DNA from: Schmidtea polychroa
Lineage: Eukaryota
DNA: 64,000 nt
Direction: 5' to 3'
NCBI GenBank assembly: GCA_044892525.1
Contig: CM097886.1
Coordinates: forward strand, 90,520,001-90,584,000
Shown here: positions 30,943 to 56,351 of the stretch, piece by piece
Layout: the number at the start of each line of letters is the position of its first letter
Position numbering within the stretch: the stretch's first letter is position 1
Translations under genes and position numbers: made by a program
The notes under the pieces: model-generated
The model's database searches: none
What the model was told of the DNA's origin: nothing
Seen by the model: the letters and a program-made list of their open reading frames with translations, nothing else

Positions 30943-32022
30943 TGTTAGGTTCGATGGGTAAGTATTCGAACTAACACAAAAACGTTTAATCGGACTCCAA
31001 ATAACTTAAAATGCGCGTAGGTAAATAAATAAGAAATATGTTTTAAATATTTATTAGCAATAAAAAGTTAGTTACATGATAATTAATATAAAACACGCTG
31101 CTTTCTAAAAGTACAGAAAACGGTTATTTAAACCGCCCTAAAGAGTATTACTAAGAATCAAGGCTGGCCCTAAATGCGCCAACAGCCCGATATAGGTGAA
31201 CGGAAAAGAGATAGGGAAGTTTACCAAATGTTACGCGATGGAGTCAACCCAGAAATTGGTTAACCCTTTTTCAAAAAATATTAGCAACGAAACAACACAA
31301 AAATACGTGCTGACGTTACTGTTTCCCTTGTTTAAATTTTATTTAATCAAATAGATTTTTATATAGATATTTTTATTTATAATTATTTAGATAAGAATAA
31401 TAAATACTAACTAATATAATTTCCTGCTTATTTAAATTTCTCGCGGAAAATAGCTAAAACCACAGACTGGTTGTTGAATTAACTTCTAATAATATTCTTC
31501 CTTTGATTTAAATATCTCCAAAGAATATTATAATTTTGAATAAAGAATATTCCAAAATCAGAATTACAAAAATTAATTTTTCGATCGATTATTATTTAGG
31601 GTGAAAATTCCGTCTACTGTTAAATTCCTAGTTAGACTGCAAAATAAATGTCAACTGACGTGAATTGCTTTCAAATCAAATTGATTTCTTCTTTTCTAAT
31701 TTTAACTACTGCGGCTATGTTTCTTTCTGGTCTACTTACCTCAAATTCGTCCTTCAGCTCACATTTTCTACTGGTATTTATACCATTTTATTTATTTAAA
31801 TCTATTAATAGTAATTATTTAATTACTATTTTTATTATATATTTTTATACAAATACTATTTTTATTACAAATCTATTTTTAGTAATTATTTATTACTATT
31901 TATATTTTTAGTTCCAATTTTAGTAATTTTTTAAATACTATTTATATTATAATTCTAATTTTAGTAATTAATTATTATTTAATTTCAAAACATTTAATTC
32001 CGGTTCCTACTGAACCCCAACA
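30943..32022 (-). repeat. 3' LTR (1080 bp)
   Basis: Direct repeat of 43885-44963; by eye 4 substitutions + one 1-bp indel. Confidence 0.97.
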
Positions 32023-32414: not shown

Positions 32415-34481
32415 CTAGTATTTTCTCCTTTTCATGACCTTGGCACTTTCGTTACGGATCCTTTGTTCTACTATGTCTGGTCTGTAACTGATCACCAAAG
32501 TCTCCCGTGTACTTACCTCTTTGTACACAATTGAGGAGATGATGTACGAGCCCTCATTAGCCTCCAATACTCCGTAATCGGGGAAATTGGATACGGCTAC
32601 TTCATGGATTGGGCCTCCGTCGTATTCCTTGATACGCGGTTTCCATTTGCTGTCGGGTCTCTGCCACCAACTAGGATCTTCCCTGTCGAGATCTTTCCGT
32701 ATTTTGATTGAGTTGCCCCTTCCGACGAACTCGCCTTCCTTCACGATAATAGGCTCTCCTGCAATTGTGGGTTCTTTCTTTGTTGCCAATATCTTGGTCA
32801 ATGCAGGATCTGGTGGCTGATAGTGGGTTTCTAAGAGATCGTCATCCTCATCCTTGATGGATATCCTAGGCATTTTCTTTTTTGTACTCTTAGGAATCTC
32901 CTTTTTCCTTTTCGTAGAGGTAGGGACATTTTTCTCCTTGTCCTCTTTCTGGGTGGGTTTCTCCGTTGTTTTCTTTTTAAATTTTAAATCATGTAGCTTA
33001 AGTAGTGGTGCTACGGCTTGGGGTAATGCTCCTCCTTCTGCTCCTTGTTTGGGTTCACTCAACGGGGCTAATGCTTTCAAGATCTTGGTGACCCGTTCAA
33101 CTAACTTTTCTGCTGGCGGTGGTTTTTCTGTTTCCATTTTAGTCGAATTCACCACTCTACCGTCATTGGTAAGGTTGACTTGGAGGCAGTTATCGTCTGC
33201 ACTCTCACAAGTGGCATAGTCGTCTTCTTCAGCAATTGAAATGGCTGGCGGCGACAAGGAATCTTCTTCCACTATTTTCAGCAACTTCGACCTAGGGATA
33301 TCTTCTTTTACATAGCTCTCCATAGCTAGAGGTTTCTGCATGCTTGAGGTACCAGGTTCCATCTGCTTTATTTGTGAAGACACCACCTCCTTCCGGGTGT
33401 CTGGTGAAATGTCATCAACCCAGATATCTCGTAAATTGTCGAAAATCTCCGTTTGAAGGTCCGAGAAGTGATGTGCCTCTTTACCGGTGACTGCCTTTGC
33501 CAAATATGCCAAACGGTAATACCCGTTGCATTTCTTTAGGTCCATACTTTCGAGGCATTTAGCTGCGCCTAACTCACGGATTCCGAGTGCGCGCTGCATT
33601 GGGAATCTGATTACTTCTAATAGGTCCTTTACTAGCAACCCCACGATGATTTTCCCATCGCAGATTTTTCTAATTCTTTCGGCACAGTCTTCTCCGTCGA
33701 ACTGTCCGGTTATTTCTCTCTCGGTCATACCATGCGCATGCGATTGGTAGTGTTTGACCTGTGCTCTGGGGGTAACTCTAGTGTTGAGTATCAGATCGCC
33801 ATTGAAATGTGAGATTGAGATGGCCACAATTGCCGGTTTCTAGAATTGTCGTAGTGTAGCGTAGTGAGCTGCTACGAAAATGGTGAGGTTATCCTCTTGT
33901 CTAGGGTCCAAGCGCTGTCTAACGAAAGACTTAAACGTTTTAATGTCGTTATCATTGACATTATATGTCCAATTTGGGTCATTAACCCATCTCGTTTGTG
34001 TTTCTCTGTGAGGTTCCAGAATTTCCATTGCTATGATGGTATCTATTCCTTCACATAACAGTGAGATGTTCTTTTCCCTTCCATCCCCGTTTTCAATTTC
34101 CAGGGTTGTATGCTTTTGCAGCAAAATGGGGTTTGTGGCACCAGAAACATAAACCGTAAATGGTTTGTTAATGGCGTGTATCCACAGGTGGTTGGTCAGA
34201 CTATGTCTGCCAAACTCAGGCATGACCTCGGTAAGCCTAATACAGCCGTTATGCTTGCCCGGGATTCTTGAAATAATCATTTGACGCTTTGGGGCCTCGT
34301 CAAATTTGAAATTATTGGGTATGCCTGAGCAATGTCCGTAAAACCAGTGCCTTTGTCCTTTTCTGCTTTGCTCCATTACCTGCTTCTCCAGGTTTTTATA
34401 AATAAGTTTTTCCTTTAGTAAGGTCGTAGCACATATAATGCTATGTCTTCCTTGGTATTGGGATATTGGATGGCTCTGCAT
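32415..34481 (-). CDS. Accessory ORF (one frame, single in-frame TAG at 33842-33840): putative AlkB/2OG-fold-like domain + DEDD exonuclease-like domain + charged tail
   Basis: ORFs 33840-34499 and 32415-33827 are in the same frame. AISISHFNGDLILNTRVTP...VKHY.S.AHG.T...KI.DGKIIVG....DL.V...IR matches REX1/REX4/ISG20-type exonucleases but ExoI acids are missing (IFVAAHYA). AlkB-like call is weaker. ATG at 34481 follows a TTTCAG acceptor. Confidence 0.6.
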
Positions 34482-34679
34482 TCCTGAAATAAAAATCATT
34501 AACCATAATATCAGATATACTGATATGTCATATTAGGCTAAAAAGATATGCATGAGTCTTATTATAAAAGATCTACATATGCTGAATTTTAATGCTACCT
34601 GGAGCTCTACGTAAATATAGATTTTAAGATATATATAAATATTTATATATGATTTTTCCCTCGGGGGAGTCTGTAATTG

Positions 34680-35596
34680 TCATAATTGCGACATCAGTAC
34701 TCCATCGTAAGCCCTTATGGCTTGTCTAAAATATAGCTTGGTCCAAATACCCATAGCTATCAGTGTAGTTATTAGCGATAGTACGGCCGATACCGTAATC
34801 CATACCCCTATGGGTATTTTCAGAATATATCCTACATTAAAGTTTGTGATGGCATTACAATCACAACAGTTTGTCAGGTTTGGGGTCGTTGGACAAGATA
34901 TTTGTTTGATAGGTGGCAACTGTCTAAGATGTTGCCACATTGCGGGATGTATTACCATGTTTTCCCTGACTACTTTTGGTGGTATCTTCGTTATAACTGG
35001 CTGTTTAAGAGGTAATATCTCCTCGAATACCTCGAACCACCTATCGTCCTGCCGTTTCCTCGGACTATAGTATATAACTAGAACCGAGTAATCTACGGAC
35101 TGATTTAGATACATTTCTTGGGAGGGTTCTGGTCTAACCATAATGTTTCTCTCGTGGTTGGTCCGTCTAGAATACTGACTTTCATCTTCTCCTCCCTGCT
35201 AATTTCTTGACTAAACTTTACTTTATTCTTTTCGTAGGATATCGATATGCGATTTGTGAAATCCGCCGTCCTCAGGATCCAATTTGATACGTGATAGGTA
35301 TACCAACCACTCTGATATAACCTTGATGCTGCGATATGCAGTTTATAATCCGTCTCGGCTTTTAAATCATATAAATCCCACTCTTTTTCTTCTGAATTGA
35401 GTTGGCGGATCCGCAAGTATTTGTTGTAAAAATGTAAATTGAATTTTGTAGCATTATCGCACGTTGTGAGTATGCTAATTCCGTGATACGTTCTTATGAA
35501 ATGCAAATGTTCCACTTGCATCGCCATAGGCTGAAAATATGCCTTTTTATCCCTTTTTGCCATCGCCAAAGTCATCATACAGCTTATTATCAACAA
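34680..35596 (-). CDS. Accessory type I membrane protein with fibronectin-III-like segments (frameshifted in this copy)
   Basis: Hydrophobic N-terminus LIISCMMTLAMA, FN3-like WDLYDLKAETDYKLHIAA, second ..YL.Q.VDYSVLV.Y, Cys cluster SCPTTPNLTNCCDC, TM IPIGVWITVSAVLSLITTLIAMGIW, short tail; frame changes near 35200-35140. Confidence 0.55.
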
Positions 35597-36935
35597 ATCT
35601 CAATGGGTATCGGTGTTCTTGTGCTTCTTCGGTAATGTTTGGTTTCACCTGTTTCTCTGGTGCTTTTACTTTTGAATTTCCAGAGGTTCCTTTTGTTGGG
35701 ATTTCGCACTTTTTACACCGATTAGCATGTACCATTATTGGTTCTGCTTTTCTGTTGGCTACGAGTTGTAATATGAGATTTGTATCTGTGGTTCTCAATA
35801 CCTCATATGGCCCTTTGAAGTTCCGCATGAGTTTTGGTGATAAGCCTTTCTTGTTATAATGACTTTCTAACATCACCTGGTCTCCAACCAATATGCCATG
35901 ATCCTTGGCTTTTCGGTCGTGATAATCTTTTGATGCTTCCTGATTATATTTTATACTGAGCCCTGCTCTGGCCCATGCTACCTGCATTCTTTCCCTCATT
36001 TCCATTAGATAATCTTCTTGATCTAAATACTGTGTTGCTTTAGGGAAAAACAACAGGTCTACTGGCATTTTATTTTGCCTCAGATACATAAGATAAAATG
36101 GTGTTTCACCTGTTCCTTCGTGCACCGCATTTCTGTATGCAAATAAACAAGATGGAATGTGGATGTCCCAATCCGTTTGCCCTGAATTTATATATGATGC
36201 TAACATATTAGCTAATGTTCCATTAAATCGTTCTACTAGCCCATCCGTCGGTGGGTGATATGGGGAAGTGTTCAACTTTAGAACTCCGAAATAATCATTT
36301 ATTCCTTTGAGCAAATTACTCATGAAATCAGCTCCCCGATCCGTTAATAGCTTTGTAGGTACTCCATACCTAAAGACAATTTGTTCCACGAAAATTCTAG
36401 CTATCGTATCAGCTTTGTGATTAGGCATCGGGTAGGCTTCTGGCCACTTAGTCAGATAGTCGCAGAACACTAATATATACTTGTTTCCGCTATTAGATTC
36501 TTTGAAGGGCCCCAACACGTCCATTGCCGTCATTTCCATAGGTGTAGATGGTACTGGCATCGGCTTCATTGGTACGTGTGGTTTCTTTCCGGTATTTCTT
36601 CTGGTGATACAGATCTTACACGTCTGACACCAGGTTTTAACATCTTGTTTCATGCCGGGCCAAAAGTATTTTTGTTTTAACCTCGACAATGTTTTTCTGG
36701 ATGACAGGTGGCCTCCTAAGACCCCATCGTGATACTGCAACATGAGTGCTTCACGGTATTTCTTAGGAACCATTATAACAATATCTCTTACATCTGAATA
36801 TTTAACTAGTCCCTCTTCCAGTACAAATTTGTCTTTATTCTTTTCCCAATATTTCGTGAATTCTGTGGGCACGTATTTTGCTTCTAAGGCTTGACGAATA
36901 ACATTTATTTCTTCGTCAGATTTTTGTGCCTCCAT
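35547..36935 (-). CDS. Integrase (HHCC, DDE core, GPY/F)
   Basis: HDGVLGGH...CQTC, MDVLGP, LTDRGADF, GLVERFNGTL, KGPYEV; in frame with pol across one TGA. Confidence 0.95.
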   Translation of the reverse strand: MEAQKSDEEINVIRQALEAKYVPTEFTKYWEKNKDKFVLEEGLVKYSDVRDIVIMVPKKYREALMLQYHDGVLGGHLSSRKTLSRLKQKYFWPGMKQDVKTWCQTCKICITRRNTGKKPHVPMKPMPVPSTPMEMTAMDVLGPFKESNSGNKYILVFCDYLTKWPEAYPMPNHKADTIARIFVEQIVFRYGVPTKLLTDRGADFMSNLLKGINDYFGVLKLNTSPYHPPTDGLVERFNGTLANMLASYINSGQTDWDIHIPSCLFAYRNAVHEGTGETPFYLMYLRQNKMPVDLLFFPKATQYLDQEDYLMEMRERMQVAWARAGLSIKYNQEASKDYHDRKAKDHGILVGDQVMLESHYNKKGLSPKLMRNFKGPYEVLRTTDTNLILQLVANRKAEPIMVHANRCKKCEIPTKGTSGNSKVKAPEKQVKPNITEEAQEHRYPLRFVDNKLYDDFGDGKKG

Positions 36936-36947
36936 TAAATCAGCTAG

Positions 36948-39308
36948 TCAGTTGGCTTCTCGAGTCAGTGTGAAGATAGTCCCTTCTAAACGTCCTTCCT
37001 TCACATCTTCTGCTTCTTCTTCCTGGTCCATTCTTGATAAAGCATCTGCATTACCATTGTGATCTCCTTTTCTGTAATGGATTTCTATGTCATATGGCTG
37101 TAAAATTAGTGCCCATCTGACTAGTTTTGATGTATCCATTGTGTGTTTTGTCAGCCACTGTAATGGTCTATGATCGGTGTACACTATGATTTTTCGACCC
37201 CATAGATAAATCCTAAACTGGGTTATAGCATATACAATTGCTAAAGCCTCTAGTTCTATCACTGCGTAGTTTCTCTCGTGTGGTTTTAACCATCTGCTAG
37301 CGTATGCAATTGCATACTCATCTCCTAGGTCATCTCTCTGACCTAGCACAGCACCTATGCCCCGAGTGCTGGCATCTGTCATAATCAAAAATTGTCTCTC
37401 AAAGTCTGGAAATCGCAATATAGGTGGCTTGACGAGCTTTTCCTTGAGCATATCAAATGCTTCCTGCTGTTCTGTTCCCCACACAAATTTGAGGTTTTTG
37501 CCTTCTAACTGCGTGAGTGGAAAGGCTATAACCGAGAAGTTTCTAATGAACTTTCTATAGTATCCGACTAGGCCTAAAAACCCTTTGATATGTTTAACGG
37601 TTTTAGGCTCGGGGAAATTCTTTACCTTTTCGACATTAGCCGGATCTGGTTTAACCCCATCTCGAGAGATGATATGACCAACATATACTACTTCTGGTTC
37701 GGCCCATTTACATTTGGTTGGTTTCACTTTCATGTTTGCGTTGATCAACCTCTTGAATACATCTTCTAAATGTTCCAAGTGTTTTTCCAAATTTGGCGAG
37801 AATACTATGACGTCGTCAATGTATACCATCGCGTGATGCACATCCATGAGCATCAAATTCATTGCTCTTTGAAATGTGGCTGGAGCTCCTGTGAGTCCAA
37901 ATGGCATTACGTTATATTCGTAATGACCCATACTCGTAGAAAACGCTGTTATTGGTATAGTCTCATCTTTTAGCTTAATTTGATAAAATCCCTTTTGGGG
38001 GTCCATTACTGAGAAGAACCTAGCGTTTCTCATGCGTCCATAGATATAATCTAACAATGGCAATGGATGGCTACTTTTGCATGTTGCTTCGTTAACCATG
38101 TGATAGTCGTTACATAATCGTACTGATCCATCCTTCTTGGCTACCACTATCATTGGCGATTGATATGGTGATTTACTATGCCTGATTATGCCATGTTTTA
38201 ACATCAATTTCACCTGTTTATCTACTGATTCCTCCAGACTGAATGGGATACGGTATGGTTTCAACTTTATAGTTTTTGTATTGGTGAGAACAATCTCATG
38301 TTCTAACAGGTTTGTTTTTCCCAGATCGTATTCATGTTTCGTGAATACCTGGTCGTATTTCCTTAATAGCATATTTACTTGGATGTTTTCCTTTCTGGTT
38401 AGTACTTTGCTGTTTGCTGTAGGTGCATCGTAGTACTCAATGTCTGGATCCCTTTCTTCTGCCTTTACGGTGAGTATCGACCCTTCTCCCGTGGCTTGTG
38501 GCTCGTTTTGTTTCCAGATTCTGCCCACTCTGGTATCTGGATATAAGTAAAGTGGTTTAATGTCCAGATTGGCTACTCTGATTGGTATTCTGCCATTGAC
38601 TATTAAACCTACGCTATGCGTAACTGGTAAATTGTATTTCTCCGAAAATCTTTCGTCCGGTTCGAATACAACTTCACCTTCCCAATTATTGCTTGTAGTT
38701 ACAAAGCATACCGTTTCTGCTCTGGGTGGTATGATAGTTGTATGATCTATATAAGCTGTATCATCGTTGTAAATTTTTCTCTTTTTACCTCGTGCTCGGA
38801 TTAACAATCCAGATGCACAATCGAATACTACCCCTCGTAGTCTTTTTAGGATGTCCATACCCAATAGTGATTCGGCTGGGAGACTTCTCATCACTATGAT
38901 GTCGTGGTGGAGCTCTTGGTCACATAGCTTAATCTGGCATGATAATGATCCTATTACATTTAATGAGGATCCGTTTGCTCCTGTTAATTTTACCCCTGCC
39001 GGTTTTAGCGACTGCAGTTCATGATGGTTTAACAATTTAGCTTCAATTATGGTACCATCTGCTCCTGAGTCTATCACCGCATTAACTGTATGTCGGTTCA
39101 CTCTTATTTTTATCATTGGCTTTTTATCCAAGTTCACTGGGTTATTGACCATCAAGATAGTATCGTGCGAGATACCGATTGTATTGGCTCTCGTTTGTTC
39201 TGCTTCCAGTAATTCAGGATCACTCAGTTGAGGATTATACTCTTTAAATTTAGCTTTAATTGACTCTAACGCTTCCTTTGGATAGTGCACTTTAGGTAAT
39301 TCTGGCAA
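36948..39308 (-). CDS. pol: Pol: aspartic protease, reverse transcriptase, RNase H
   Basis: VIDSGAD; YQSPMIVV.KKDGSVRLCNDY, MPFGL, YIDDVIVFS; TDASTRGIGAVL, ELEALAIV, YTDHRPL, NADALSR. First ATG at 39152. Confidence 0.97.
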   Translation of the reverse strand: MPELPKVHYPKEALESIKAKFKEYNPQLSDPELLEAEQTRANTIGISHDTILMVNNPVNLDKKPMIKIRVNRHTVNAVIDSGADGTIIEAKLLNHHELQSLKPAGVKLTGANGSSLNVIGSLSCQIKLCDQELHHDIIVMRSLPAESLLGMDILKRLRGVVFDCASGLLIRARGKKRKIYNDDTAYIDHTTIIPPRAETVCFVTTSNNWEGEVVFEPDERFSEKYNLPVTHSVGLIVNGRIPIRVANLDIKPLYLYPDTRVGRIWKQNEPQATGEGSILTVKAEERDPDIEYYDAPTANSKVLTRKENIQVNMLLRKYDQVFTKHEYDLGKTNLLEHEIVLTNTKTIKLKPYRIPFSLEESVDKQVKLMLKHGIIRHSKSPYQSPMIVVAKKDGSVRLCNDYHMVNEATCKSSHPLPLLDYIYGRMRNARFFSVMDPQKGFYQIKLKDETIPITAFSTSMGHYEYNVMPFGLTGAPATFQRAMNLMLMDVHHAMVYIDDVIVFSPNLEKHLEHLEDVFKRLINANMKVKPTKCKWAEPEVVYVGHIISRDGVKPDPANVEKVKNFPEPKTVKHIKGFLGLVGYYRKFIRNFSVIAFPLTQLEGKNLKFVWGTEQQEAFDMLKEKLVKPPILRFPDFERQFLIMTDASTRGIGAVLGQRDDLGDEYAIAYASRWLKPHERNYAVIELEALAIVYAITQFRIYLWGRKIIVYTDHRPLQWLTKHTMDTSKLVRWALILQPYDIEIHYRKGDHNGNADALSRMDQEEEAEDVKEGRLEGTIFTLTREAN

Positions 39309-39351
39309 TGTTGAACATTATTAAAAAAAACAGATTATTAAATATGGTATC

Positions 39352-40835
39352 TTAGCCGATTTTCCATTGGTGTCGTCCTGTTCTGAGTGTTGTTTCCCTT
39401 GCATGTTCCCGCCCCTCGTTTGGTGCGGATGGTAAACTCCTCAAAGTTGGCAATTGTACATATCTTGGACTTCTCTTGAATCTGGGTGACTTTATGTCGA
39501 ATTTTTGGTCGGAACTGTCATATTCTCCTTCTGAGGACTGTTTTCTCACGTAGATTTCCTTTGATTGGTCATATGGAGGGAGATATTCCTTAAATCTCGA
39601 TTTTCTTTGTTGCTGAATCGGTTTTTTGTTGTAGTTCTGTTTTCGTGATTGATTTGATCTTGAAGATGTTTCACGAGAGCCTCCATTACCTCCTCCCTTT
39701 GAATTGTTATCGTCCCGATAACTCGAATACTCCTCCATTTCTGTTCCAATTACTTTATGTTTGACCAAATATTTCTGTCTAATTTCTTTAATTTTTTTTC
39801 TGTGATGTTTGAATAATGCAAACTCTGCACACATAGGACATAATCCTAATAGCAGTTTCCATGACCATCCCCCAATTTTGAATATGCTATATGTTGACAT
39901 CAGTTGTGTAATTATCAGCTTTAAAATTACAAATATTGCGTAGATTCCTGAACATCCGGCGACGAAAATACCAAAATTGGTAAATCGTCCCCATATTTTC
40001 ATCATTACGTTCTTTGCTGCTTCTTTATAGTGTTCCGGTCCAAATAATAGATTGTAATCTGGTCGTATTAAGCTATCATGATAAATTGTTCTTATAATTT
40101 CCGTGATACCTCTGTCTCTGATTTGTGGGAATAGCAATGTCCTTCTTGCTTCCTCGATATCGTCGGGAGTGTAAATCCCTCCTTTTACTAATTCGTCTAA
40201 TGACTTGAATTCCAGATTATCCTTTAATTTAGTTACTTCCAAGGTCTCTACCCGTTGTGTAGATGGTTTTCTTTCCGGCAAAGATATCCACATGTCATTT
40301 ATTTTATATAACGGTGATATTGCCGGGTTGCATATGGCTGGTTGAGGTTTAGCGTTTTCCTCAAGTAACTTTCTGGTTACTGGCATCACAAATCTCAATT
40401 TTCCTTGGTAAGACACTGGCAGTTCTAGAGTGCATTGATTAAATCTGGCTAATTGTACTTCCACTGGTTTACACTCATAGCTATATATAGCTTCTCCCAT
40501 GATTCTGCCAAACATTCCCTCTTCCAATAACATTGGAGTAACCAGCTCTGGGTTAACGATAGATATTGCTAATCTATTTCGGACTATTTCACGATTTAGC
40601 TTGCAATCGTTTGCAGATCATGATATAAATAATCTACTTTATTATTTATATAATTCGTGATTTTGATATCCTTTACATGTAGGACCTTGGAATTTCGAAT
40701 ATATTCTCTTGACAGGAAGATTCCTTTGTATTTCGTCTCGTATACTCTTTTCCCACATTTAGTCTTTTTATCTTTTCGGACAAATCGAATTGCTTCTGTC
40801 TTGTCTTCCGATATCAACACTAGAGGTGTGTTTTG
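39352..40835 (-). CDS. env: env-like chuvirus-type (class III) glycoprotein, N-terminally truncated, one frameshift near 40605
   Basis: TPLVLISED...CGKRVYETKY.GIFL...YINNK.DYLY, then DCKLNREI...GEAIY...C.PVEV......C..ELPV.Y....F..P.TR.L...C...Y.I...W...GIYT..D....R..L.FP, and W..F..FG...AG..GIY....LI.......GWSW.LL; pattern typical of Jingchuvirales-like G proteins. Confidence 0.85.
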
Positions 40836-43785
40836 GAATCGTTTCCTTTTCCCAAAATTTGTTTACGGTCATCCATACCTCCAGGTAATAATCTACCATT
40901 TCGACTATTTGATCGATTTCTCGTTCTATAAGCCTTTTATCATCCCCTACCCGGGCTAGGGCATTTTGAATTAACAATGATAGTGATGTTACCACTTTCC
41001 CTCTTGTTAATCCTTGCTGTACGAAGGCTTCTATGGCATCCTGAATATCTCTAGTTGATACATCTTTGGATACTCTTTCCATTGTCTTCTTGACCTCTTT
41101 CGTTATTTTCTTTACTTCGATCCCCTTGATTTTTGGAATTCTCCATTCGGGCCTGATAATCCCGATCATTTGTTGTATACGTTGCCACAATAACGACCTC
41201 TCTGACGTTGTCTCATCTTCCACCTGGTCGTCCATTTCTTGAGCTATCCCTGTTAATGTTTTTAACTGAATTTTCCGAATCGTTTCCGGATTTAACTGCT
41301 CCTTGGGTGGAGGTTTCATTTGATCCTTTCTAGGACGTCCTCGTCCGTCTTTTTTCACTTTCTCCGGGGGTTTTTCAGCCTCCGGATTTGTTATAGCTTG
41401 TGACGTAGTAGCTTCTACGTTTGTTTCTCCTGGATTTAATCTGACGTACTCTGAGAAGTAATCTTCCTCGTCAATATCCACCATTTGACAGGGATTAATT
41501 TCCTCTAGTCTTATTTCCTCGATCTCTTCCGCAATTTCGTTTGCTATATCTGGCAGTCTCATTAATGACCACTGGGACTCTGGTGGAGTTACTGGGATGA
41601 TCATTACCGTGGTTGTTGCCAGCGGTAGACAACCCACATCCACTAGATATTCATCATCATCCACTTGCCTACCATGGACCATTGTCAGGAATATACCTGT
41701 AGTTTGATCGGTGGCAATCACATCTCTCCTTAATATTTTGACTTTGATATAACAATTATAAATCATTGTTAATTGTTCTTTTCCCATCATTCGCACGTCT
41801 AGATTAATGTTGCCTTGTCTATCAGGCTGACTTCGGATAGCTTTCCCATTTTTCCTCATCAGCGCTTCAATTTGCGTCTGGAATGGGCTTGTTTCCTTTA
41901 CCACTGGTAGTATAAGTGGAATTATTGCTTCCAACAAATCTACTGGTATTCGTAATACTAACATCCAGTCAAGTATTTTCTTTATAGTTTCTCCATCTCG
42001 TGGAGATTTCTGCAATTCCAACCCTAGTCGCTGGGTTAATTGTTGAGTTTCTTCCAATCTCTCTATTTCCATCTGAGTAATCAAGAATACGCTATCTTGA
42101 TCCATTACTGCCACTGGCTTCTGTGCTCTCTTTGCTGTGAGCTTCGTCACTCTACCTGGGAGTATCCCGTTTTGTAGAAGTGTTTGATTTGCTTCTAGTT
42201 TTGTTCCACATAAGTATAAGTCATATCCTTGATGCTTAATACTTGTCAATGTTTCCGTTAATTTATCGGCTCGACTTCTTACATTTATATCGAGATTATA
42301 CTCTTTATCCTGTGGTAGCTTTATATTGAGCTGAGCATCTTGGAGATCCCACTCATGTTCCATGAGTTTTCCTAATTTCCTTAGGATTTTGTACGTGTCA
42401 TTATGATACTTTGGATCATCTTCGACCTGCGATATCAGTTTTACTACTGTATCGATTTCGTGAATTTTAATTTCTGCTTCTCCCAATTTTTCCAATTGTC
42501 TGGCCAGCTTCTGCTGGTACTCATATCTGGAATCCACCAGTTTTAAACATTTTGTTAGGGTATCTGACCCTTCTATTACCTTTGCTTTCCCTGGTAAGGT
42601 TCTATCGAACTCGCTTAGTATGGTGGCCATACTAGGTTCATCATCGGAACTCTCCTCTGATTCCGTTTCCTGAAGGTCCTCTCTAACGGAGTCCTTTTTT
42701 CTGAGAAATTCATCTCTTCCAACTTCTACCATGAAGATGGTGCCTTCTTGGTCGGTCAATCTAGCCAACCTATTCTTTTCCTCCTGGATTTCCATTTCCA
42801 GTTGTTGCAGATAAGTTAACCCTTGATCCTGGTTAACCATAAAAGTCGTCTTAGGCTTGTTCACATTACATCCACTCTGATTCTGAGGACATGACCTCAT
42901 CATATGTCCGAATTTCCCACATCCGTGACATTTTATCTTTCCTGATGAATTTACATCATCTCTTTTAATCGTACTAAAATTATTGCTGTTCTGAGGACTT
43001 CTAGTCTTGTAGACCGCAGCAACATGTCCCTTACGTTTACATTTTTCGCATTGCAAATTCTGTACTCTACAGTTTTCCGCACCGTGGTTATTCCGTCCAC
43101 ATTTGGTACATTGTATACTTTTGCGATTGCCCATAATTTTCCTACTGGTACAATCTTTCGCTATATGCCCTTTTCTATGGCAATTGAAACACTCTACCGG
43201 TGTTCTTTCACTGTTTACTAGGAACATGGTTGACTTTTCCAAGCTGCTTTCAATTACGACAGCTTTCCGTGTTAATTCGTCAAAATCATCACTAGTATAT
43301 AATATTAGGGCGTTCCTCATTGTAGGAGTAAGTCCTGCCCATAACTGATCCTTAACTAACAATTCTGTTGGCTTTGCCCATGTGGTTTTTGGACCAAATG
43401 CTCTTTCGGCAATTAATGATAGCTGGTGTGCAAATTCCTCCACATGTTCATTGGCATTCGGTTTTCGATGGTAAAATTGTTGTCTAAATATTCTTCCCGC
43501 ATCTCCGGGCAATATTCGAGCAGTCATTTGTTCTCTCATTTCGGCCCATGTTTTCGGTGCTTGAGCAACTGGTAATGCCATTATGTCATTATATTTTTCT
43601 CTTGCCAGCCCCTTCAGATATATGGGTAACCTTTGTATCATGATATTATCTGGATAGGCATATGCTTTGGCCATCTGATAATATTCAGACATAAACTCTG
43701 GGAATTCTCCCGGATCACCACTGAATGCCTTTACGGGCAGAGCGGGATATCTGGCAAATGCATTTACATTAGCTTCCTCTGCCAT
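40768..43785 (-). CDS. gag: Gag polyprotein, 1005 aa, with long C-terminal extension
   Basis: FSGDP.EF.EF...Y, capsid-like region, Zn knuckles CFNCHRKGHIAKDC, CTKCGRNNHGAENC, CEKCKRKGHVAAVY (degenerate), CHGCGKFGHMMRSC; later Ubl-like segment and GRGRPRK. Confidence 0.93.
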   Translation of the reverse strand: MAEEANVNAFARYPALPVKAFSGDPGEFPEFMSEYYQMAKAYAYPDNIMIQRLPIYLKGLAREKYNDIMALPVAQAPKTWAEMREQMTARILPGDAGRIFRQQFYHRKPNANEHVEEFAHQLSLIAERAFGPKTTWAKPTELLVKDQLWAGLTPTMRNALILYTSDDFDELTRKAVVIESSLEKSTMFLVNSERTPVECFNCHRKGHIAKDCTSRKIMGNRKSIQCTKCGRNNHGAENCRVQNLQCEKCKRKGHVAAVYKTRSPQNSNNFSTIKRDDVNSSGKIKCHGCGKFGHMMRSCPQNQSGCNVNKPKTTFMVNQDQGLTYLQQLEMEIQEEKNRLARLTDQEGTIFMVEVGRDEFLRKKDSVREDLQETESEESSDDEPSMATILSEFDRTLPGKAKVIEGSDTLTKCLKLVDSRYEYQQKLARQLEKLGEAEIKIHEIDTVVKLISQVEDDPKYHNDTYKILRKLGKLMEHEWDLQDAQLNIKLPQDKEYNLDINVRSRADKLTETLTSIKHQGYDLYLCGTKLEANQTLLQNGILPGRVTKLTAKRAQKPVAVMDQDSVFLITQMEIERLEETQQLTQRLGLELQKSPRDGETIKKILDWMLVLRIPVDLLEAIIPLILPVVKETSPFQTQIEALMRKNGKAIRSQPDRQGNINLDVRMMGKEQLTMIYNCYIKVKILRRDVIATDQTTGIFLTMVHGRQVDDDEYLVDVGCLPLATTTVMIIPVTPPESQWSLMRLPDIANEIAEEIEEIRLEEINPCQMVDIDEEDYFSEYVRLNPGETNVEATTSQAITNPEAEKPPEKVKKDGRGRPRKDQMKPPPKEQLNPETIRKIQLKTLTGIAQEMDDQVEDETTSERSLLWQRIQQMIGIIRPEWRIPKIKGIEVKKITKEVKKTMERVSKDVSTRDIQDAIEAFVQQGLTRGKVVTSLSLLIQNALARVGDDKRLIEREIDQIVEMVDYYLEVWMTVNKFWEKETIPKHTSSVDIGRQDRSNSICPKR

Positions 43786-43863
43786 TTGATTATCCAGTTT
43801 TACTCTGGCTCTAGTTCCTAACGCTATTTTGTTTTATTTCAATTTCTACCCGCTGATAATTTT

Positions 43864-43881
43864 ATCACGTCGGGCTCACCA
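43864..43881 (-). promoter_or_regulatory. Primer-binding site complementary to tRNA-Trp 3' end
   Basis: TGGTGAGCCCGACGTGAT, 3 nt inside the 5' LTR; its complement ATCACGTCGGGCTCACCA matches the animal tRNA-Trp 3' end (ATCACGTCGGGGTCACCA) at 17/18. Confidence 0.9.
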
Positions 43882-43884
43882 AAA

Positions 43885-44963
43885 TGTTAGGTTCGATGGG
43901 TAAGTATTCGAACTAACACAAAAACGTTTAATCGGACTCCAAATAACTTAAAATGCGCGTAGGTAAATAAATAAGAAATATGTTTTAAATATTTATTAGC
44001 AATAAAAAGTTAGTTACATGATAATTAATATAAAACACGCTGCTTTCTAAAAGTACAGAAAACGGTTATTCAAACTGCCCTAAAGAGTATTACTAAGAAT
44101 CAAGGCTGGCCCTAAATGCGCCAACAGCCCGATATAGGTGAACGGAAAAGAGATAGGGAAGTTTACCAAATGTTACGCGATGGAGTCAACCCAGAAATTG
44201 GTTAACCCTTTTTCAAAAAATATTAGCAACGAAACAACACAAAAATACGTGCTGACGTTACTGTTTCCCTTGTTTAAATTTTATTTAATCAAATAGATTT
44301 TTATATAGATATTTTTATTTATAATTATTTAGATAAGAATAATAAATACTAACTAATATAATTTCCTGCTTATTTAAATTTCTCGCGGAAAATAGCTAAA
44401 ACCACAGACTGGTTGTTGAATTAACTTCTAATAATATTCTTCCTTTGATTTAAATATCTCCAAAGAATATTATAATTTTGAATAAAGAATATTCCAAAAT
44501 CAGAATTACAAAAATTAATTTTTCGATCGATTATTATTTAGGATGAAAATTCCGTCTACTGTTAAATTCCTAGTTAGACTGCAAAATAAATGTCAACTGA
44601 CGTGAATTGCTTTCAAATCAAATTGATTTCTTCTTTTCTAATTTTAACTACTGCGGCTATGTTTCTTTCTGGTCTACTTACCTCAAATTCGTCCTTCAGC
44701 TCACATTTTCTACTGGTATTTATACCATTTTATTTATTTAAATCTATTAATAGTAATTATTTAATTACTATTTTTATTATATATTTTTATACAAATACTA
44801 TTTTTATTACAAATCTATTTTTAGTAATTATTTATTACTATTTATATTTTAGTTCCAATTTTAGTAATTTTTTAAATACTATTTATATTATAATTCTAAT
44901 TTTAGTAATTAATTATTATTTAATTTCAAAACCTTTAATTCCGGTTCCTACTGAACCCCAACA
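43885..44963 (-). repeat. 5' LTR (1079 bp)
   Basis: Direct repeat of 30943-32022, adjacent to PBS. Confidence 0.97.
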
Positions 44964-50223: not shown

Positions 50224-52273
50224 TTACAGAATATTATGGTTATCTATTGTCGACTGTTCACAAAACTTTAACCACTGGAAATAGAGAAATAGAGAAAGTT
50301 CTTCTTTATTTGAGATGGAATATTCTGGAGAATAATAATTAACTCTGAATGGATTATATTTCTCAATGGAGCTGATTGGCTTACAATATTGTGTGCAGCT
50401 AGTAATATTCTGTGTGTTTGTGATGGATAAATTTGATTGGTTAATAAAGGTTTTGACTATAAATTCATCATTTTGCTGCTGTTGGTGGTGATGGTGATGG
50501 TGATGGTGATTATTGGCATTGGAATCGGATAATTCTGAGAACGATAATCGTGGAGATTTGTCAATGAAATGATTGGTTGATAATGATTTGGCAGCGTTGG
50601 AAACGGATTTATTATTATTGTTTTGCTTGTTTAGATCCGATTCATTGATGAAATTGAATTTGAATAGAGATAAATCTAAATGCCTAGAAACGCAACTTGG
50701 GGAACTAGATTTCCTATGAATTCGATCTGGCACATTTGGCGTTGGATTTGGTTGGAATTTTGTGCTTTCTGTGACTGTTGAGTGATTTTCCTTTACAAAT
50801 CCAATCGATTCATTCTGGGTTGCTTGAATTTCATTGTTCAACTGTTCCATTTGGTCTTTATCGATCGAATCATAACGTTCGATTTCATGGAATCCGCTAT
50901 CGGTGCTCGATGTTCTCGTGTTCTCTTTTGATTCGTCGGGAATCGATGAGATTTCTGAGATGGGAATTTCGTTTCCAGTATTTCTGGTAGAATTCTCTAT
51001 GGTGTTATTATCGAGTTTCAGTTTCCCGTCTAATGCTGAGGCGGCAAGGGAACTCGTCTGGGCGTTGTCAGTAGCATCTAATGTTGAGGCGGCAAGGGAA
51101 CTAATTTGGGCGTTGTCAGTAGGATCTAATGCTGAGGCGGCATGGGAACTAATCTGGGTGTTGTCAGTAAGATCTAATGCCGAGACGGCAAGGGAACTCA
51201 TCTGGGCGTTGTCAGTGGCATCTAATACTGAGGAGGCAAGGAAACTCATATGGGCGTTGTCAGTAAGATCTAATGCCGAGGCGGCAAGGGAACTCGTCTG
51301 GGCGTTGTCAGTAGCATCTAATGCTGAGGCGGCAAGGGAACTAATCTGGGCGTTGTCAGTAGCATCTAATGCTGAGGCGGCAAGGGAACTAATCTGGGCG
51401 TTGTCAGTAGCATCTAATACTGATGTGGCATGGGAACTAATCTGGGCGTTGTCAGTAGCATCTAATGCTGAGGCGGCGTGGGAACTAATTTGGGCGTTGT
51501 CAGTAGGATCTAATGCTGAGGCGGCATGGGAACTAATCTGGGTGTTGTCAGTAAGATCTAATGCCGAGACGGCAAGGGAACTCATCTGGGCGTTGTCAGT
51601 GGCATCTAATACTGAGGAGGCAAGGAAACTCATCTGGGCGTTGTCAGTAAGATCTAATGCCGAGGTGGCAAGGGAACTAATCTGAGCGTTGTCAGTAGCA
51701 TCTAATGCTGTAGAATGAAAAAATGAACCCAACGAAGAATCTTCATCAAAGGCATTTTGCTTTACAGAATAGGGCGTCGAGTCAAGGACATTTAATATTG
51801 TCAAAGATTGAGTGGTTAAAATTTCTTCTTTTAAGGTATTTACATCTATATTTAATAGGTTGTCAATAATTTGGGTGTCTTGGGAGATAATCTGTCGATT
51901 ATTGGAAAGGGAGCAATGTGACAGCTCGGTTATTATTGTGCTGTTTTTAGGGGGAACATTTTTGTGAGGTTTTATACTGTTAGTTACTGCTAGGGTCGGT
52001 GGAATTTGGGTTAGTTTCGGAGGTAAATTATTTTTCACGGAATCGATTTTATGTCGTTTGGATTTTTTGGATTTTTTACGTTTTTTATATGATTTTTTGC
52101 TAATTTCATTTAGAACTTCTTTTTCCGATTTTTCCCCATTGATAAACTCTGTCAATAGATCTATTGGAAGGTTGGATAATATTTCAGGGGATAATGTGGA
52201 GAGATCGATTGGCACTATGTTCGAGCCTTTCGATGTTATTTGACAGGTTTGATTGGCATCATATTGTGATTCC
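50224..52273 (-). CDS. Large last exon of a low-complexity protein with 16-aa tandem repeats and His/Gln runs
   Basis: Frame open from a TTATTAG acceptor near 52273 to stop at 50224; Lys-rich NLS-like stretch, 14 repeats of LDATDNAQISSLAASA, poly-H/Q. No domain recognised; upstream exons not found. Confidence 0.65.
51029..51710 (-). repeat. 48-bp coding minisatellite, ~14 units with higher-order duplication
   Basis: Unit GCATCTAATGCTGAGGCGGCAAGGGAACTAATCTGGGCGTTGTCAGTA; variant units 2-5 recur as units 10-13. Confidence 0.95.
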
Positions 52274-52857: not shown

Positions 52858-55800
52858 AGTAGGTAATTAGTAGCCACCTGCGGCACGACCATCTGTTACT
52901 GGGGGGGGATGTTGTTAAAGTAAATTTTTTTTGCTTTTTGGTTACGTAACTGCTGCAGAGGGCAACACTTATTTTTTCTGTGATTTTTAATAGAAAACAA
53001 GGCCATATAGAAAAAGCCTGGATTTTCTGGTTATAATGAAGGGGTCACCTTGGTCCTTGGATTTTCAATACAAAATCTGACTATCACTAAAAAAGCATAG
53101 ATTTTTCTAAGTAAATTAAGGTGGGTCTCCTTGATCCTGAGATTTTCAATACAAAATCCGATTCTCGTTAAAAAAGCATGGATAAGCAAGTATAATTTGG
53201 GTGGGTCTCTTTGGTCCTGGGATTTTCAATACAAATATCAGTCTACACTAAAAAAGCATGGTAAATTTTAAAATTAAAGTAAATTAAGGTCTAAATTTTT
53301 AAATTAAAGTAATCAATGGGCTCAGACAAGTAAAGTAAATTATGGTTAAATTTTTTAATTAAGTAATCAATGGTCTAAAATTTAAAATTAAAGTTAAGTA
53401 AGTAAATTAAAGTAATAATTTTAAATCAAAAGTGAATAACCACAAAATTTTTGATAAATGAAATTTTTAATGGAAATTTTTATGAAATAATAATAATAGT
53501 AATAATAATAATAATAGTAATAACAATAGTAATAATAATAATAATAAAACAATAAAATAATAATTTAAGCCTTTTGCAGCAAATAATGTATTTAATGAAA
53601 AGATTTTCTACTATAAGATAGTCCTTGTCAATCTCCTAAAATTTAGCAATGTTCTTCCCAAAAATACCTTTCAATCTTTCTTTTATTTCCTTTCTCTTAG
53701 TTCTCATTGGTTGTAAATATAATGAATTTTTTTATTAAAAACTTTTAAAATTTTACTGAAAATTAAAAATAAAATAAAATAAAATAAATACCATTTAAAA
53801 TTCCAAAATGGCACAAACTAAAAATTTAAAAATTTTTTTATACAGCTTCTATAATTAGCTTCTAGAAGCCTAATAAAATATTTCAAAATATTCTAAATAA
53901 AGCCTCCAATAACTACTTATATATGCTATTTAAATATTTCAATAAATTTGTCAATTTTGATTTTCAAATCCTATTTCTTAAAATTTTCTATATTATTCTA
54001 ATTATTACTTTTTAATTTATTATATATTTTTTTTAATTTCTTTATATATTGTCAGTTATTCTCAAGGTCAATGACAACAGATCAAATTCATGATTTCATT
54101 GATTTCTTTAGTGTTGATCTTTGGCTGTCTGTTTATGATGAGAATTGCTTCTTTGAATTTGACATTTTTCTTTTGGATATTTCCATTAGCTATGATTTCT
54201 ATTGAAATATTTTTTCTTTCCTCTGTTGGCTGACACTGCCGGAGATGTCTGCCCAATGAGGATGTTCCACCAGGATCTAGATGTTCTTTAACTCTTTGGT
54301 GCAAGGTCTTGAGTGTACTTCCAATGTAGATTTCATTGCATACATTGCACGTGATGCAATAGACGATGTTTTTTCTAAAGCACATATCTTTCGGTGTCTG
54401 GCAGTTTTTCATTGTGCAATTGTTTTCTCTATTTATGTTGCCTGCCAGAGCTCTTCTCAATGTCCAAGATTTATGTGCTATCCGAATTGGAAGACCGGTA
54501 CGTTTAAGTTCTTTCAGGATCTTGAAGTCGAGTATGTCACTGATGAATGGGATGTTCAGATAGAATTATTTCTTATTCTTTTGTGTTAATTCCCTAGATC
54601 TTCTTGGGGTAGAATTCATTCTTTCAATGTCCTCGCCTTGGTATCCGTTTCGGTGTAGGATTTTATTGAAATTTGATTGTTCTTTAAAGTTTTCGTTTTT
54701 TTCCGTGCATCGATTGGCTATTCTTCGTTTCTCGTTTCTTATGACATGTAATTTCTGTAAGTATGGAAGCGCTGATCTTTGGTGCATAAATATTTCTTTG
54801 CGAGCTGGTTTTCTGTAGAACCCGAATGTTGGAGTATTTGCTTCTATTTTATTTCTCAAATCCAATTAATTGAGGGATCCATCTTCTTCCGGATATTCGA
54901 TTTCGAACTTAATATCTCGGTGAGCCGCATTGAATGTATGAAATATTTCCTCCTCTTCTTTTCTGCTTTTGGTCATGATGAATATATCATCTACATATCT
55001 TGCATAGAAACCGATGGGTTGTATGGTCCTCAGTGTCTGTCGTTCGAGGTTATCAATAAAGATGATTGCTAGCAGTCCTGATATGCAAGAACCCATATAT
55101 AGACCTTTAACTTGTTTATAGATATTTTGCTCAAAGGTAAAATAGGTGTTCTCGGGGATAAGAGTAAGTAGTTTTGTGATATTCTCGATATTCATTTCCT
55201 TTATTAACAAGTTGCTTTCTCTTAATTTCTTTTATAAACATTGAATAGCTTCTTTGAATAAGAAAGGAAAAAAATATTTCAATAGAAATCATAGCTAATG
55301 GAAATATCCAAAAGAAAAATGTCAAATTCAAAGAAGCAATTCTCATCATAAACAGACAGCCAAAGATCAACACTAAAGAAATCAATGAAATCATGAATTT
55401 GATCTGTTGTCATTGACCTTGAGAATAACTGACAATATATAAAGAAATTAAAAAAAATATATAATAAATTAAAAAGTAATAATTAGAATAATATAGAAAA
55501 TTTTAAGAAATAGGATTTGAAAATCAAAATTGACAAATTTATTGAAATATTTAAATAGCATATATAAGTAGTTATTGGAGGCTTTATTTAGAATATTTTG
55601 AAATATTTTATTAGGCTTCTAGAAGCTAATTATAGAAGCTGTATAAAAAAATTTTTAAATTTTTAGTTTGTGCCATTTTGGAATTTTAAATGGTATTTAT
55701 TTTATTTTATTTTATTTTTAATTTTCAGTAAAATTTTAAAAGTTTTTAATAAAAAAATTCATTATATTTACAACCAATGAGAATTAAGAGAAAGGAAATA

Positions 55801-56351
55801 AAAGAAAGACTGAAAGGTATTTTTGGGAAGAACATTGCTAAATTTTAGGAGATTGACAAGGACTATCTTATAGTCGAATTTTTTTTCATTAAATACATTA
55901 TTTGCAGCAAAAGGCCTAAATTATCAATAATAATGATAATAATATTTCAACCAAATACTTAAACACATAAAAATTAACTAAACATATAAAAAGAACAAGA
56001 CAAAAGTAAAGATATAAAATTTATTCAATAATAATCTTCATCATCTGATAACATGACATCGTCTGTCTATAAGTTCATCAATTTCTAATTGCACATTTTC
56101 TTCATTCTTTTTTTGGTCATTATTTTTAATCCTTAATTTACCATGCTTTTTTAGTGAAGACCCCCTTTTTGTATTGTAATTCGAAGGTTCCATGGAGACC
56201 CTCTCACTATAGTCAGAAAAATCCTTGCTTGTTTCTATATGATCTTTTTTTTCTATTGAAAATCGCAGAAAAAATAAGTATAGCCCACTGCAGCAGTTAC
56301 ATAACCAAAAAGCAAAAAAATCCGCCTGCAGTTGGCTACTAACTACCTACT
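52858..56351. mobile_element. Non-autonomous long-TIR element with AG termini (possibly Polinton-derived)
   Basis: TIRs AGTAGGTA.TTAGTAGCCA... (52858-~53120 vs ~56125-56351, diverged); ~60-bp subterminal tandem repeats at 53040-53260; flanks TATATT / TATATC. Confidence 0.7.
53561..55924 (-). mobile_element. Penelope-like element (RT + GIY-YIG, frameshifted) with ~660-bp inverted arms
   Basis: RT: TYFTFEQNIYKQVKGLYMGSCIS, YARYVDDIFI; FYRKP; GIY-YIG: IVYCITCNVCNEIYIGST...RVKEH; arms 53561-54220 and 55262-55924 nearly identical; degenerate hammerhead TGACAAG-GACTAT/CTT/ATAGTC-GAA at ~55853-55880. Confidence 0.9.

Follow-up and report, generated by a model that had tools for sequence, protein, structure and literature searches.

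A 64,000-nucleotide stretch of the Schmidtea polychroa genome (the window) contains a decayed copy of a multi-copy, env-bearing Ty3/gypsy LTR retroelement with a Burro-like layout, whose accessory gene (ORF3) joins a predicted double-stranded beta-helix domain to a DEDDh exonuclease domain of ISG20/REX4-type origin. Loss of the catalytic residues is heritable and not private to the window copy, and both domains remain under strong purifying selection after it. ORF3 is conserved in nine element families (A-I) of the genome: the full nuclease motif set has been kept in five (E-I, the live clade) and lost in four (A-D, the dead clade), and the window copy belongs to family A.

The retroelement and its ORF3 families

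The features of the window copy, all on the minus strand, are as follows.

43885..44963, minus: 5' LTR (TGT...ACA), from its TG...CA ends and LTR comparison
40768..43833, minus: gag with CCHC knuckles and a long extension, continuing into the env remnant (Pfam zf-CCHC, E 3e-8; Retrotrans_gag weak)
39331..40835, minus: env remnant, Monjiviricetes-type fusion glycoprotein (PF24664, E 2e-50)
35598..39317, minus: pol (protease, RT, RNase H, integrase; Pfam), interrupted by stops in the window copy
34680..35596, minus: polyprotein C-terminal tail after integrase, frameshifted twice in the window copy, ending in TGA then CAATTA
34674..34682, minus: pol stop TGA with CAATTA (L038:5233-5241 in a sister locus)
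34482..34679, minus: 198-nt spacer, conserved as nucleotides, with a TATATA box-like motif, a hairpin (34509-34525), and TTAAT, T tract and AG (AG at 34484-34485)
32415..34481, minus: ORF3, accessory gene, from the conserved ATG (frame and sister-copy alignment)
34011..34481, minus: N-terminal domain of ORF3, predicted double-stranded beta-helix (cupin/2OG-oxygenase fold) with no HxD...H triad (structure model and structure comparison)
33411..33893, minus: ISG20/REX4-type DEDDh pseudo-exonuclease (ExoI 33878-33861; private TAG 33842-33840; ExoII 33641-33621; 24-nt deletion near 33450)
32847..33410, minus: low-complexity linker, acidic then lysine-rich, varying between families
32418..32846, minus: conserved C-terminal domain, in the dead clade only
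30943..32022, minus: 3' LTR, from LTR comparison

The element is about 14-15 kb in size, and the window copy, with one deletion in env, is 14.0 kb. Its LTRs are 4 substitutions and 1 indel apart, and a 4-bp target-site duplication (TATT) lies at either flank. A primer-binding site that starts with TGG (43867-43884) adjoins the 5' LTR and resembles the complement of the 3' end of a tRNA-Trp. Pfam domains occur in the order gag, Monjiviricetes fusion glycoprotein, protease, RT, RNase H and integrase, and env lies in frame between gag and pol, within a single polyprotein, in four sister frames (L043, L046, L109 and L110). In the window copy this arrangement is broken: by comparison with a natural frame of a sister copy, env is frameshifted and has lost about 285 codons from the N-terminal half. 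The tail that follows integrase, also present in L043, L046 and L094-L104 and in both clades, contains a hydrophobic segment, a beta-rich region that is fibronectin-III-like by eye, and a transmembrane-like segment; a Pfam scan of this tail returned no match, and it is possibly a second surface protein. At one locus (L039:1242-5678), a deletion removes integrase and joins RT-RNase H in frame to the spacer and ORF3.

ORF3 lies after the end of pol and before the 3' LTR. An earlier note, made from the sequence alone, had described a single reading frame (34499-32415) broken by one TAG. The frame, the TAG (33842-33840) and all of the motifs quoted from it (QMIISRIPGKHNGCIRLTEVMPEFG, FTVYVSG, ILLQKHTTLEIENG and IFVAAHYA) are present on the minus strand, but the start codon that is conserved among copies, an ATG at 34481, lies six codons further on, and position 34499 sits within an acceptor-like T tract. 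The frame is not a product of chance, since at least 39 other copies of the window's family were found at 92-95% DNA identity (40 of 203 candidates were scored, one of them the window itself). Family A was aligned in 38 rows, consisting of the window and 37 of the 39 other listed copies, with two partial copies left out; ORF3 is uninterrupted in 13 of these 37 sister copies. The position of the TAG is occupied by a sense codon in 37 of the 38 rows, and since the TAG is thus private to the window copy, its use as a programmed internal readthrough site is ruled out. A 24-nt deletion over the ExoIII helix, near 33450, is likewise found in the window only (1 of 38 rows), and the window copy has a second stop upstream of ORF3 (34533-34535). 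Small indels private to single copies are very numerous in these young copies (L001-L037), both in the integrase tail and in ORF3.

Families B (50% identity), C (39%) and D (40%) were found by protein searches of the genome, E and F as the ORF3 of elements with the same layout among multi-copy genome matches to Pfam RNase_T, and G, H and I by starting from E and F. An RT tree of 7 rows, from which B, D and H were left out as no RT sequence was taken for them, splits the dead families (A, C) from the live ones (E, F, G, I) at 100/100. ORF3 has also given rise to a satellite, in tandem arrays (G000:C3:106.49-106.52 Mb and 107.05-107.22 Mb; over 60 units listed) whose unit of 2.87-2.88 kb holds a family-C ORF3 fragment with one stop.

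Two other features were noted elsewhere in the window. One is a 682-aa open frame (50224-52272, minus strand) with a 48-bp tandem repeat array (50885-51808). The other is a pair of 656-bp inverted repeats (53560-55924), 99% complementary and 1053 nt apart, which are nested in weaker inverted repeats (52926-56320) and are likely a foldback or MITE-type element.

The two enzyme-like domains of ORF3

The nuclease half was linked to its cellular relatives through the live clade. By itself, the window clade matches ISG20L2 weakly (E 0.05-0.07). The ORF3 of family A matches that of family F (BLASTP E 4e-19 over 200 aa; profile-profile 99%), family F in turn matches ISG20L2 (E 2.6e-7) and ISG20 (E 3.3e-6), and a joint profile of the two clades matches ISG20L2 at E 3.4e-14. 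Pfam RNase_T is passed by five of the nine family representatives, which are the live clade by motif, and homology to ISG20/REX4-type DEDDh proteins covers the whole domain. This bridge, together with the motif losses in A-D, bears out the earlier note's reading of a REX4/ISG20-type DEDDh exonuclease with a disabled active site, and argues for an ISG20/REX4-type origin of the nuclease half. The structure model of the domain was too poor for use (pLDDT 39; Foldseek with this model gave no match at E<=0.001), so that retention of the nuclease fold is judged from sequence only.

In families E-I, the ExoI D-x-E, the Glu at ExoII and the ExoIII H-x4-D are all intact. Families A-D (4 of 4) have neither of the ExoI acids, nor the ExoII acid, nor the ExoIII His, and keep the last (ExoIII) acid. 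Their ExoI acid positions are A/S and H/G, and their ExoII acid position is hydrophobic, with an Asp one position earlier. None of the 38 family-A rows has D or E at the two ExoI sites, so the sister copies share this loss with the window copy, in which the ExoIII motif has been deleted besides. The loss is presumably derived, because the cellular relatives and the sister clade are intact. The segment after ExoI, which in DEDDh enzymes lies near the substrate, is among the best conserved parts of the dead domain.

The dead clade's C-terminal domain had no match in Pfam or PDB and no profile match to the C-terminus of the live clade. A GCN5 match to the C-terminus (E 0.14) was not reproduced by profile; the C-terminus is chromodomain-like by eye only. 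Pfam searches with the halves of the window ORF3 and with families A-D returned nothing meaningful, a ToxA_N row (E 0.14) and HHH_3 (1 of 8 members) being treated as chance. No relatives of ORF3 were found in a set of 5.8 billion proteins, at lengths of 185-1229 aa, or in one metagenome scan.

For the N-terminal domain, a model of moderate confidence built on an 8-sequence alignment (ten-residue blocks of pLDDT 60-87 over residues 71-150; 47 for the whole model) predicts an eight-strand double-stranded beta-helix core. Its closest structural matches are ALKBH6 (Z 10.4, rmsd 3.7, 141 aligned) and an algal prolyl 4-hydroxylase (Z 10.2, rmsd 3.5, 145 aligned), followed by ALKBH7 (Z 9.8), pirin (9.4) and the N-terminal domain of vaccinia C16 (8.6); 50 chains were matched at Z>=8, nearly all of them 2OG oxygenases and cupins. 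Foldseek with the same model placed PHD2 first (E 4e-4), with ALKBH8 at 1e-3. The viral fold matches include poxvirus proteins, which are among the top ones, and plant-virus replicases. With the register taken from secondary structure, the HxD...H triad is absent in all nine families; at the strand II position there is no His in 11 of 11 rows, and at the expected distal His there is K/R. All 11 rows, across the nine families, share three residues: an acid in strand II, a His in strand III and a Glu in strand VIII.

Thus, the earlier proposal of a double-stranded beta-helix without an iron triad agrees with the predicted model (Z about 10) and with the alignment, but its tentative assignment to AlkB was too specific, because the AlkB, prolyl hydroxylase and cupin structures are tied (ALKBH6, prolyl 4-hydroxylase and pirin lie within 1 Z unit) and the profile test gave no AlkB signal. 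In that test, barrel alignments were compared with 27 AlkB, 27 P4H-type and 21 Cupin_3 sequences, giving P of 0.29-0.66, 0.12-0.35 and 0.001-0.15, respectively, with the best control at 0.041; the Cupin_3 values of 0.001-0.004 came from the live-clade and joint alignments and are better than those of the controls, whereas neither AlkB nor P4H gave a signal. In Pfam, the live-clade barrel gave weak cupin and DUF7881_N rows only. AlkB proteins have an R-x5-R motif on the last strand; families A-D lack it, and in the live clade a single terminal Arg is possibly equivalent to the second Arg. The N-terminal domains of the two clades align collinearly but weakly (P 0.002, probability 14%), and the fusion of barrel and nuclease is therefore probably, not certainly, ancestral to both.

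Selection on ORF3 and its expression

Over 78 non-independent pairs of the 13 uninterrupted family-A copies, which were picked for their open frame, pN/pS is 0.073 in the N-terminal and 0.151 in the nuclease-like domain. When only variants common to at least 3 of the 38 rows are counted, pN/pS is 0.06 for the N-terminal, 0.11 for the nuclease-like and 0.12 for the C-terminal domain, and 0.18 for the integrase tail; for variants private to single rows it is 0.34-0.44. Between families C and D, dN/dS is 0.042 and 0.029. Neutral decay is ruled out by values so far below 1, and retention by selection, which the earlier note had supposed, is upheld at pN/pS of 0.07-0.15 where decay would have given values near 1. 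Purifying selection acts on live and dead clades alike, and both have recently been amplified. It means that the protein matters to the element, and is not proof that its partner is RNA.

The spacer between pol and ORF3 is constrained as nucleotides and not as protein. In the 13 family-A copies its pS is 0.0003 versus a pN of 0.022, and third-position identity between families A and B is 68% in the spacer versus 39% in ORF3. TTAAT (or a close variant), a T tract and an AG located 2-4 nt before the conserved ATG were found in 60 of 60 readable loci of families A-D. An acceptor-like rule, set after the sites had been seen, is passed by all four families of the dead clade and by one of the five of the live clade, and by 24 of 1649 background ATGs (1.5%); families G and I have the AG with too few T for the rule. 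A hairpin (TATCA...TGATA) precedes the acceptor-like site in A-D, with a loop that differs between A/B and C/D; at the window locus (34509-34525) and in L038, L046 and L057 it lies 25-33 nt before the end of the stretch near the acceptor. A GATTGG (reverse CCAAT-like) motif in live-clade spacers (L074, L081, L082, L094, L098 and L100) and longer GC-rich hairpins in the spacers of G, H and I were noted by eye, and are possibly parts of an internal promoter.

The 66 codons of the spacer are open and in frame with ORF3 in families A and B, the other frames holding 2-10 stops. ORF3 of family C is in another frame. In family D, all three frames of the spacer are closed at 4 of 5 readable loci (of 7 in total), the fifth having a rearranged flank. 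Because of the acceptor-like site, the nucleotide constraint on the spacer, the other frame in C and the closed frames in D, ORF3 is most likely translated from its own ATG, on an mRNA that is subgenomic and probably spliced; flatworms trans-splice leaders. Among the sequencing runs listed as containing the element there is no RNA run. Contigs of four runs cover the element, and the lack of an acceptor joint among the 15 listed of 81 says nothing either way. In families A and B only, the pol stop TGA is followed by CAATTA (32 of 37 family-A loci by pattern match, and family B). CARYYA is a stop-codon readthrough signal, and TGA CAA TTA presumably fits this leaky-stop context. Since the spacer of these two families is also open in frame, a membrane-anchored form of ORF3 may additionally arise when the pol stop is read through; such readthrough is not general, given the other frame in C and the closed spacer in D.

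Relation to known systems and possible function

The pieces of this gene and its element are known separately: an exonuclease as ORF3 of LTR elements, AlkB in a gypsy element, a DEDDh nuclease in a transposon, an in-frame env, and a dead PHD2-like domain in a virus. Burro (GYPSM1) elements, which are giant gypsy-like LTR elements of planarians, share with the window element a CCHC gag, an env related to mononegavirus fusion glycoproteins and in frame between gag and pol, and accessory ORFs (PMC6431247). Unlike Burro, which is over 30 kb, the window element is about 14-15 kb, and its Pfam scan gave no MATH, BIR, BCL2, ankyrin or dUTPase; the available part of the Burro description lists no exonuclease or beta-helix ORF3 (PMC6431247). 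The Vesta and Juno LTR elements of bdelloid rotifers likewise carry a 3'-5' exonuclease as ORF3, with a DEED motif as in the live clade, but theirs is an intact RNase D-like DEDDy enzyme, whereas the window clade is ISG20/REX4-like DEDDh, and the excerpted account reports no beta-helix domain and describes lineages without env (PMC5408684). The rotifer precedent named in the earlier note for DEDD genes in LTR elements therefore stands, though for an intact enzyme of another subfamily; the nematode precedent named beside it was not met in the literature examined (PMC5408684 in part). KolobokD, as far as the consulted portion of its description goes, also carries a DEDDh nuclease, but is a DNA transposon whose nuclease is nearer to exuperantia/TREX/ERI1 than to ISG20 (PMC9587614). 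The cellular proteins ISG20, ISG20L2, REX4 and SDN1 match ORF3 collinearly over their full length and are active enzymes, whereas the window clade is without three of the four acids and the His.

As for the barrel, a gypsy element of Phalaenopsis has an accessory ORF of the 2OG-oxygenase fold that was proposed to counter host RNA control; in the sections of that report available, it is recent, clearly AlkB and catalytically active (PMC9289625). The barrel of ORF3, by contrast, is remote, has no iron ligands, cannot be assigned to AlkB and is joined to a nuclease domain. The N-terminal domain of vaccinia C16/C4 has a PHD2-like fold without cofactor ligands, as does the predicted barrel, but belongs to a DNA virus and is joined to a second domain that binds Ku, by the part of the account at hand (PMC9674614); no sequence link to ORF3 was found. 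In the literature and protein searches, an ISG20-type ORF3, its fusion to a beta-helix and a live/dead clade pair were not found; supplements and Repbase lay outside their scope, and an annotation may exist. The live/dead pair of accessory nucleases within one retroelement lineage is a variant on known accessory nucleases.

The reading that we prefer, with belief and doubt about evenly divided, is that the ORF3 product is a putative RNA-binding adaptor that does not cut and that protects the element's RNA against turnover or silencing by the host. The ancestral protein would have trimmed RNA 3' ends. The dead form, having presumably kept the substrate-binding surface and gained the new C-terminal domain, would for that reason cap the ends of RNA or sit on them, or act as a competitor of host nucleases, instead of cutting. 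Dead DEDD proteins with retained RNA binding include Maelstrom and EXD1 of the piRNA pathway (PMC5408684), and planarian gypsy elements are described as main targets of nuclear PIWI silencing that are derepressed without SMEDWI-2 (PMC8532177), both by the excerpted accounts; neither precedent nor result shows what the ORF3 protein does. Clearly less probable is a decoy that binds proteins and not RNA, in which the dead barrel and dead nuclease would mimic host enzymes of the prolyl hydroxylase/AlkB and REX4/ISG20L2 types and titrate their partners, by analogy with vaccinia C16 and PHD2. The rank of PHD2 in Foldseek, the Z of C16-N and the poxvirus proteins among the top viral matches are consistent with it, as are, from the available parts of both sources, the cleft that C16-N keeps without cofactor ligands while binding PHD2 (PMC9674614) and the other host-regulator domains of Burro elements (PMC6431247). 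Against it, fold likeness shows no function, and the live clade shows that the module arose around a nuclease. Conservation of the segment after ExoI, on the substrate side of DEDDh enzymes, also speaks against the decoy.

Two further readings are less probable than the decoy. It is quite unlikely that ORF3 assists the virus-like particle as a structural or replication factor (in packaging of RNA, handling of the primer or import into the nucleus), some of it being produced in A and B as a membrane-anchored extension when the pol stop is read through: the TGA CAA TTA context, the open in-frame spacer of these families and the fact that the sole indel common to several family-A copies is of 3 nt are in its favour, but the spacer is not protein-like by its pS and third-position identities, and families C and D do not allow readthrough as a general route. 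That both domains are active with rewired chemistry, their conserved alternative residues forming new catalytic or ligand sites, is very improbable. The invariant strand II acid, strand III His and strand VIII Glu of the barrel would suit it, as would the ExoIII acid and the Asp before ExoII in the dead nuclease; however, the kept barrel residues could equally be structural salt bridges, and two-metal DEDD catalysis requires the ExoI acids, which have been replaced in four families.

In a fuller scenario, which is unlikely as a whole, an endogenous retrovirus-like lineage of animals would have captured an ISG20-type exonuclease and a beta-helix domain, and in one branch the pair would then have become a pseudo-enzyme that suppresses piRNA/siRNA silencing and is expressed from a subgenomic mRNA of its own, possibly one with a trans-spliced leader. 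If this were true, the two branches in one genome would show a switch from degrading RNA to masking it. Little is known in animals of accessory genes by which retroelements counteract host RNA control, and with one captured nuclease present in both live and dead form in a single genome, the use of a dead nuclease to a retroelement becomes directly testable.
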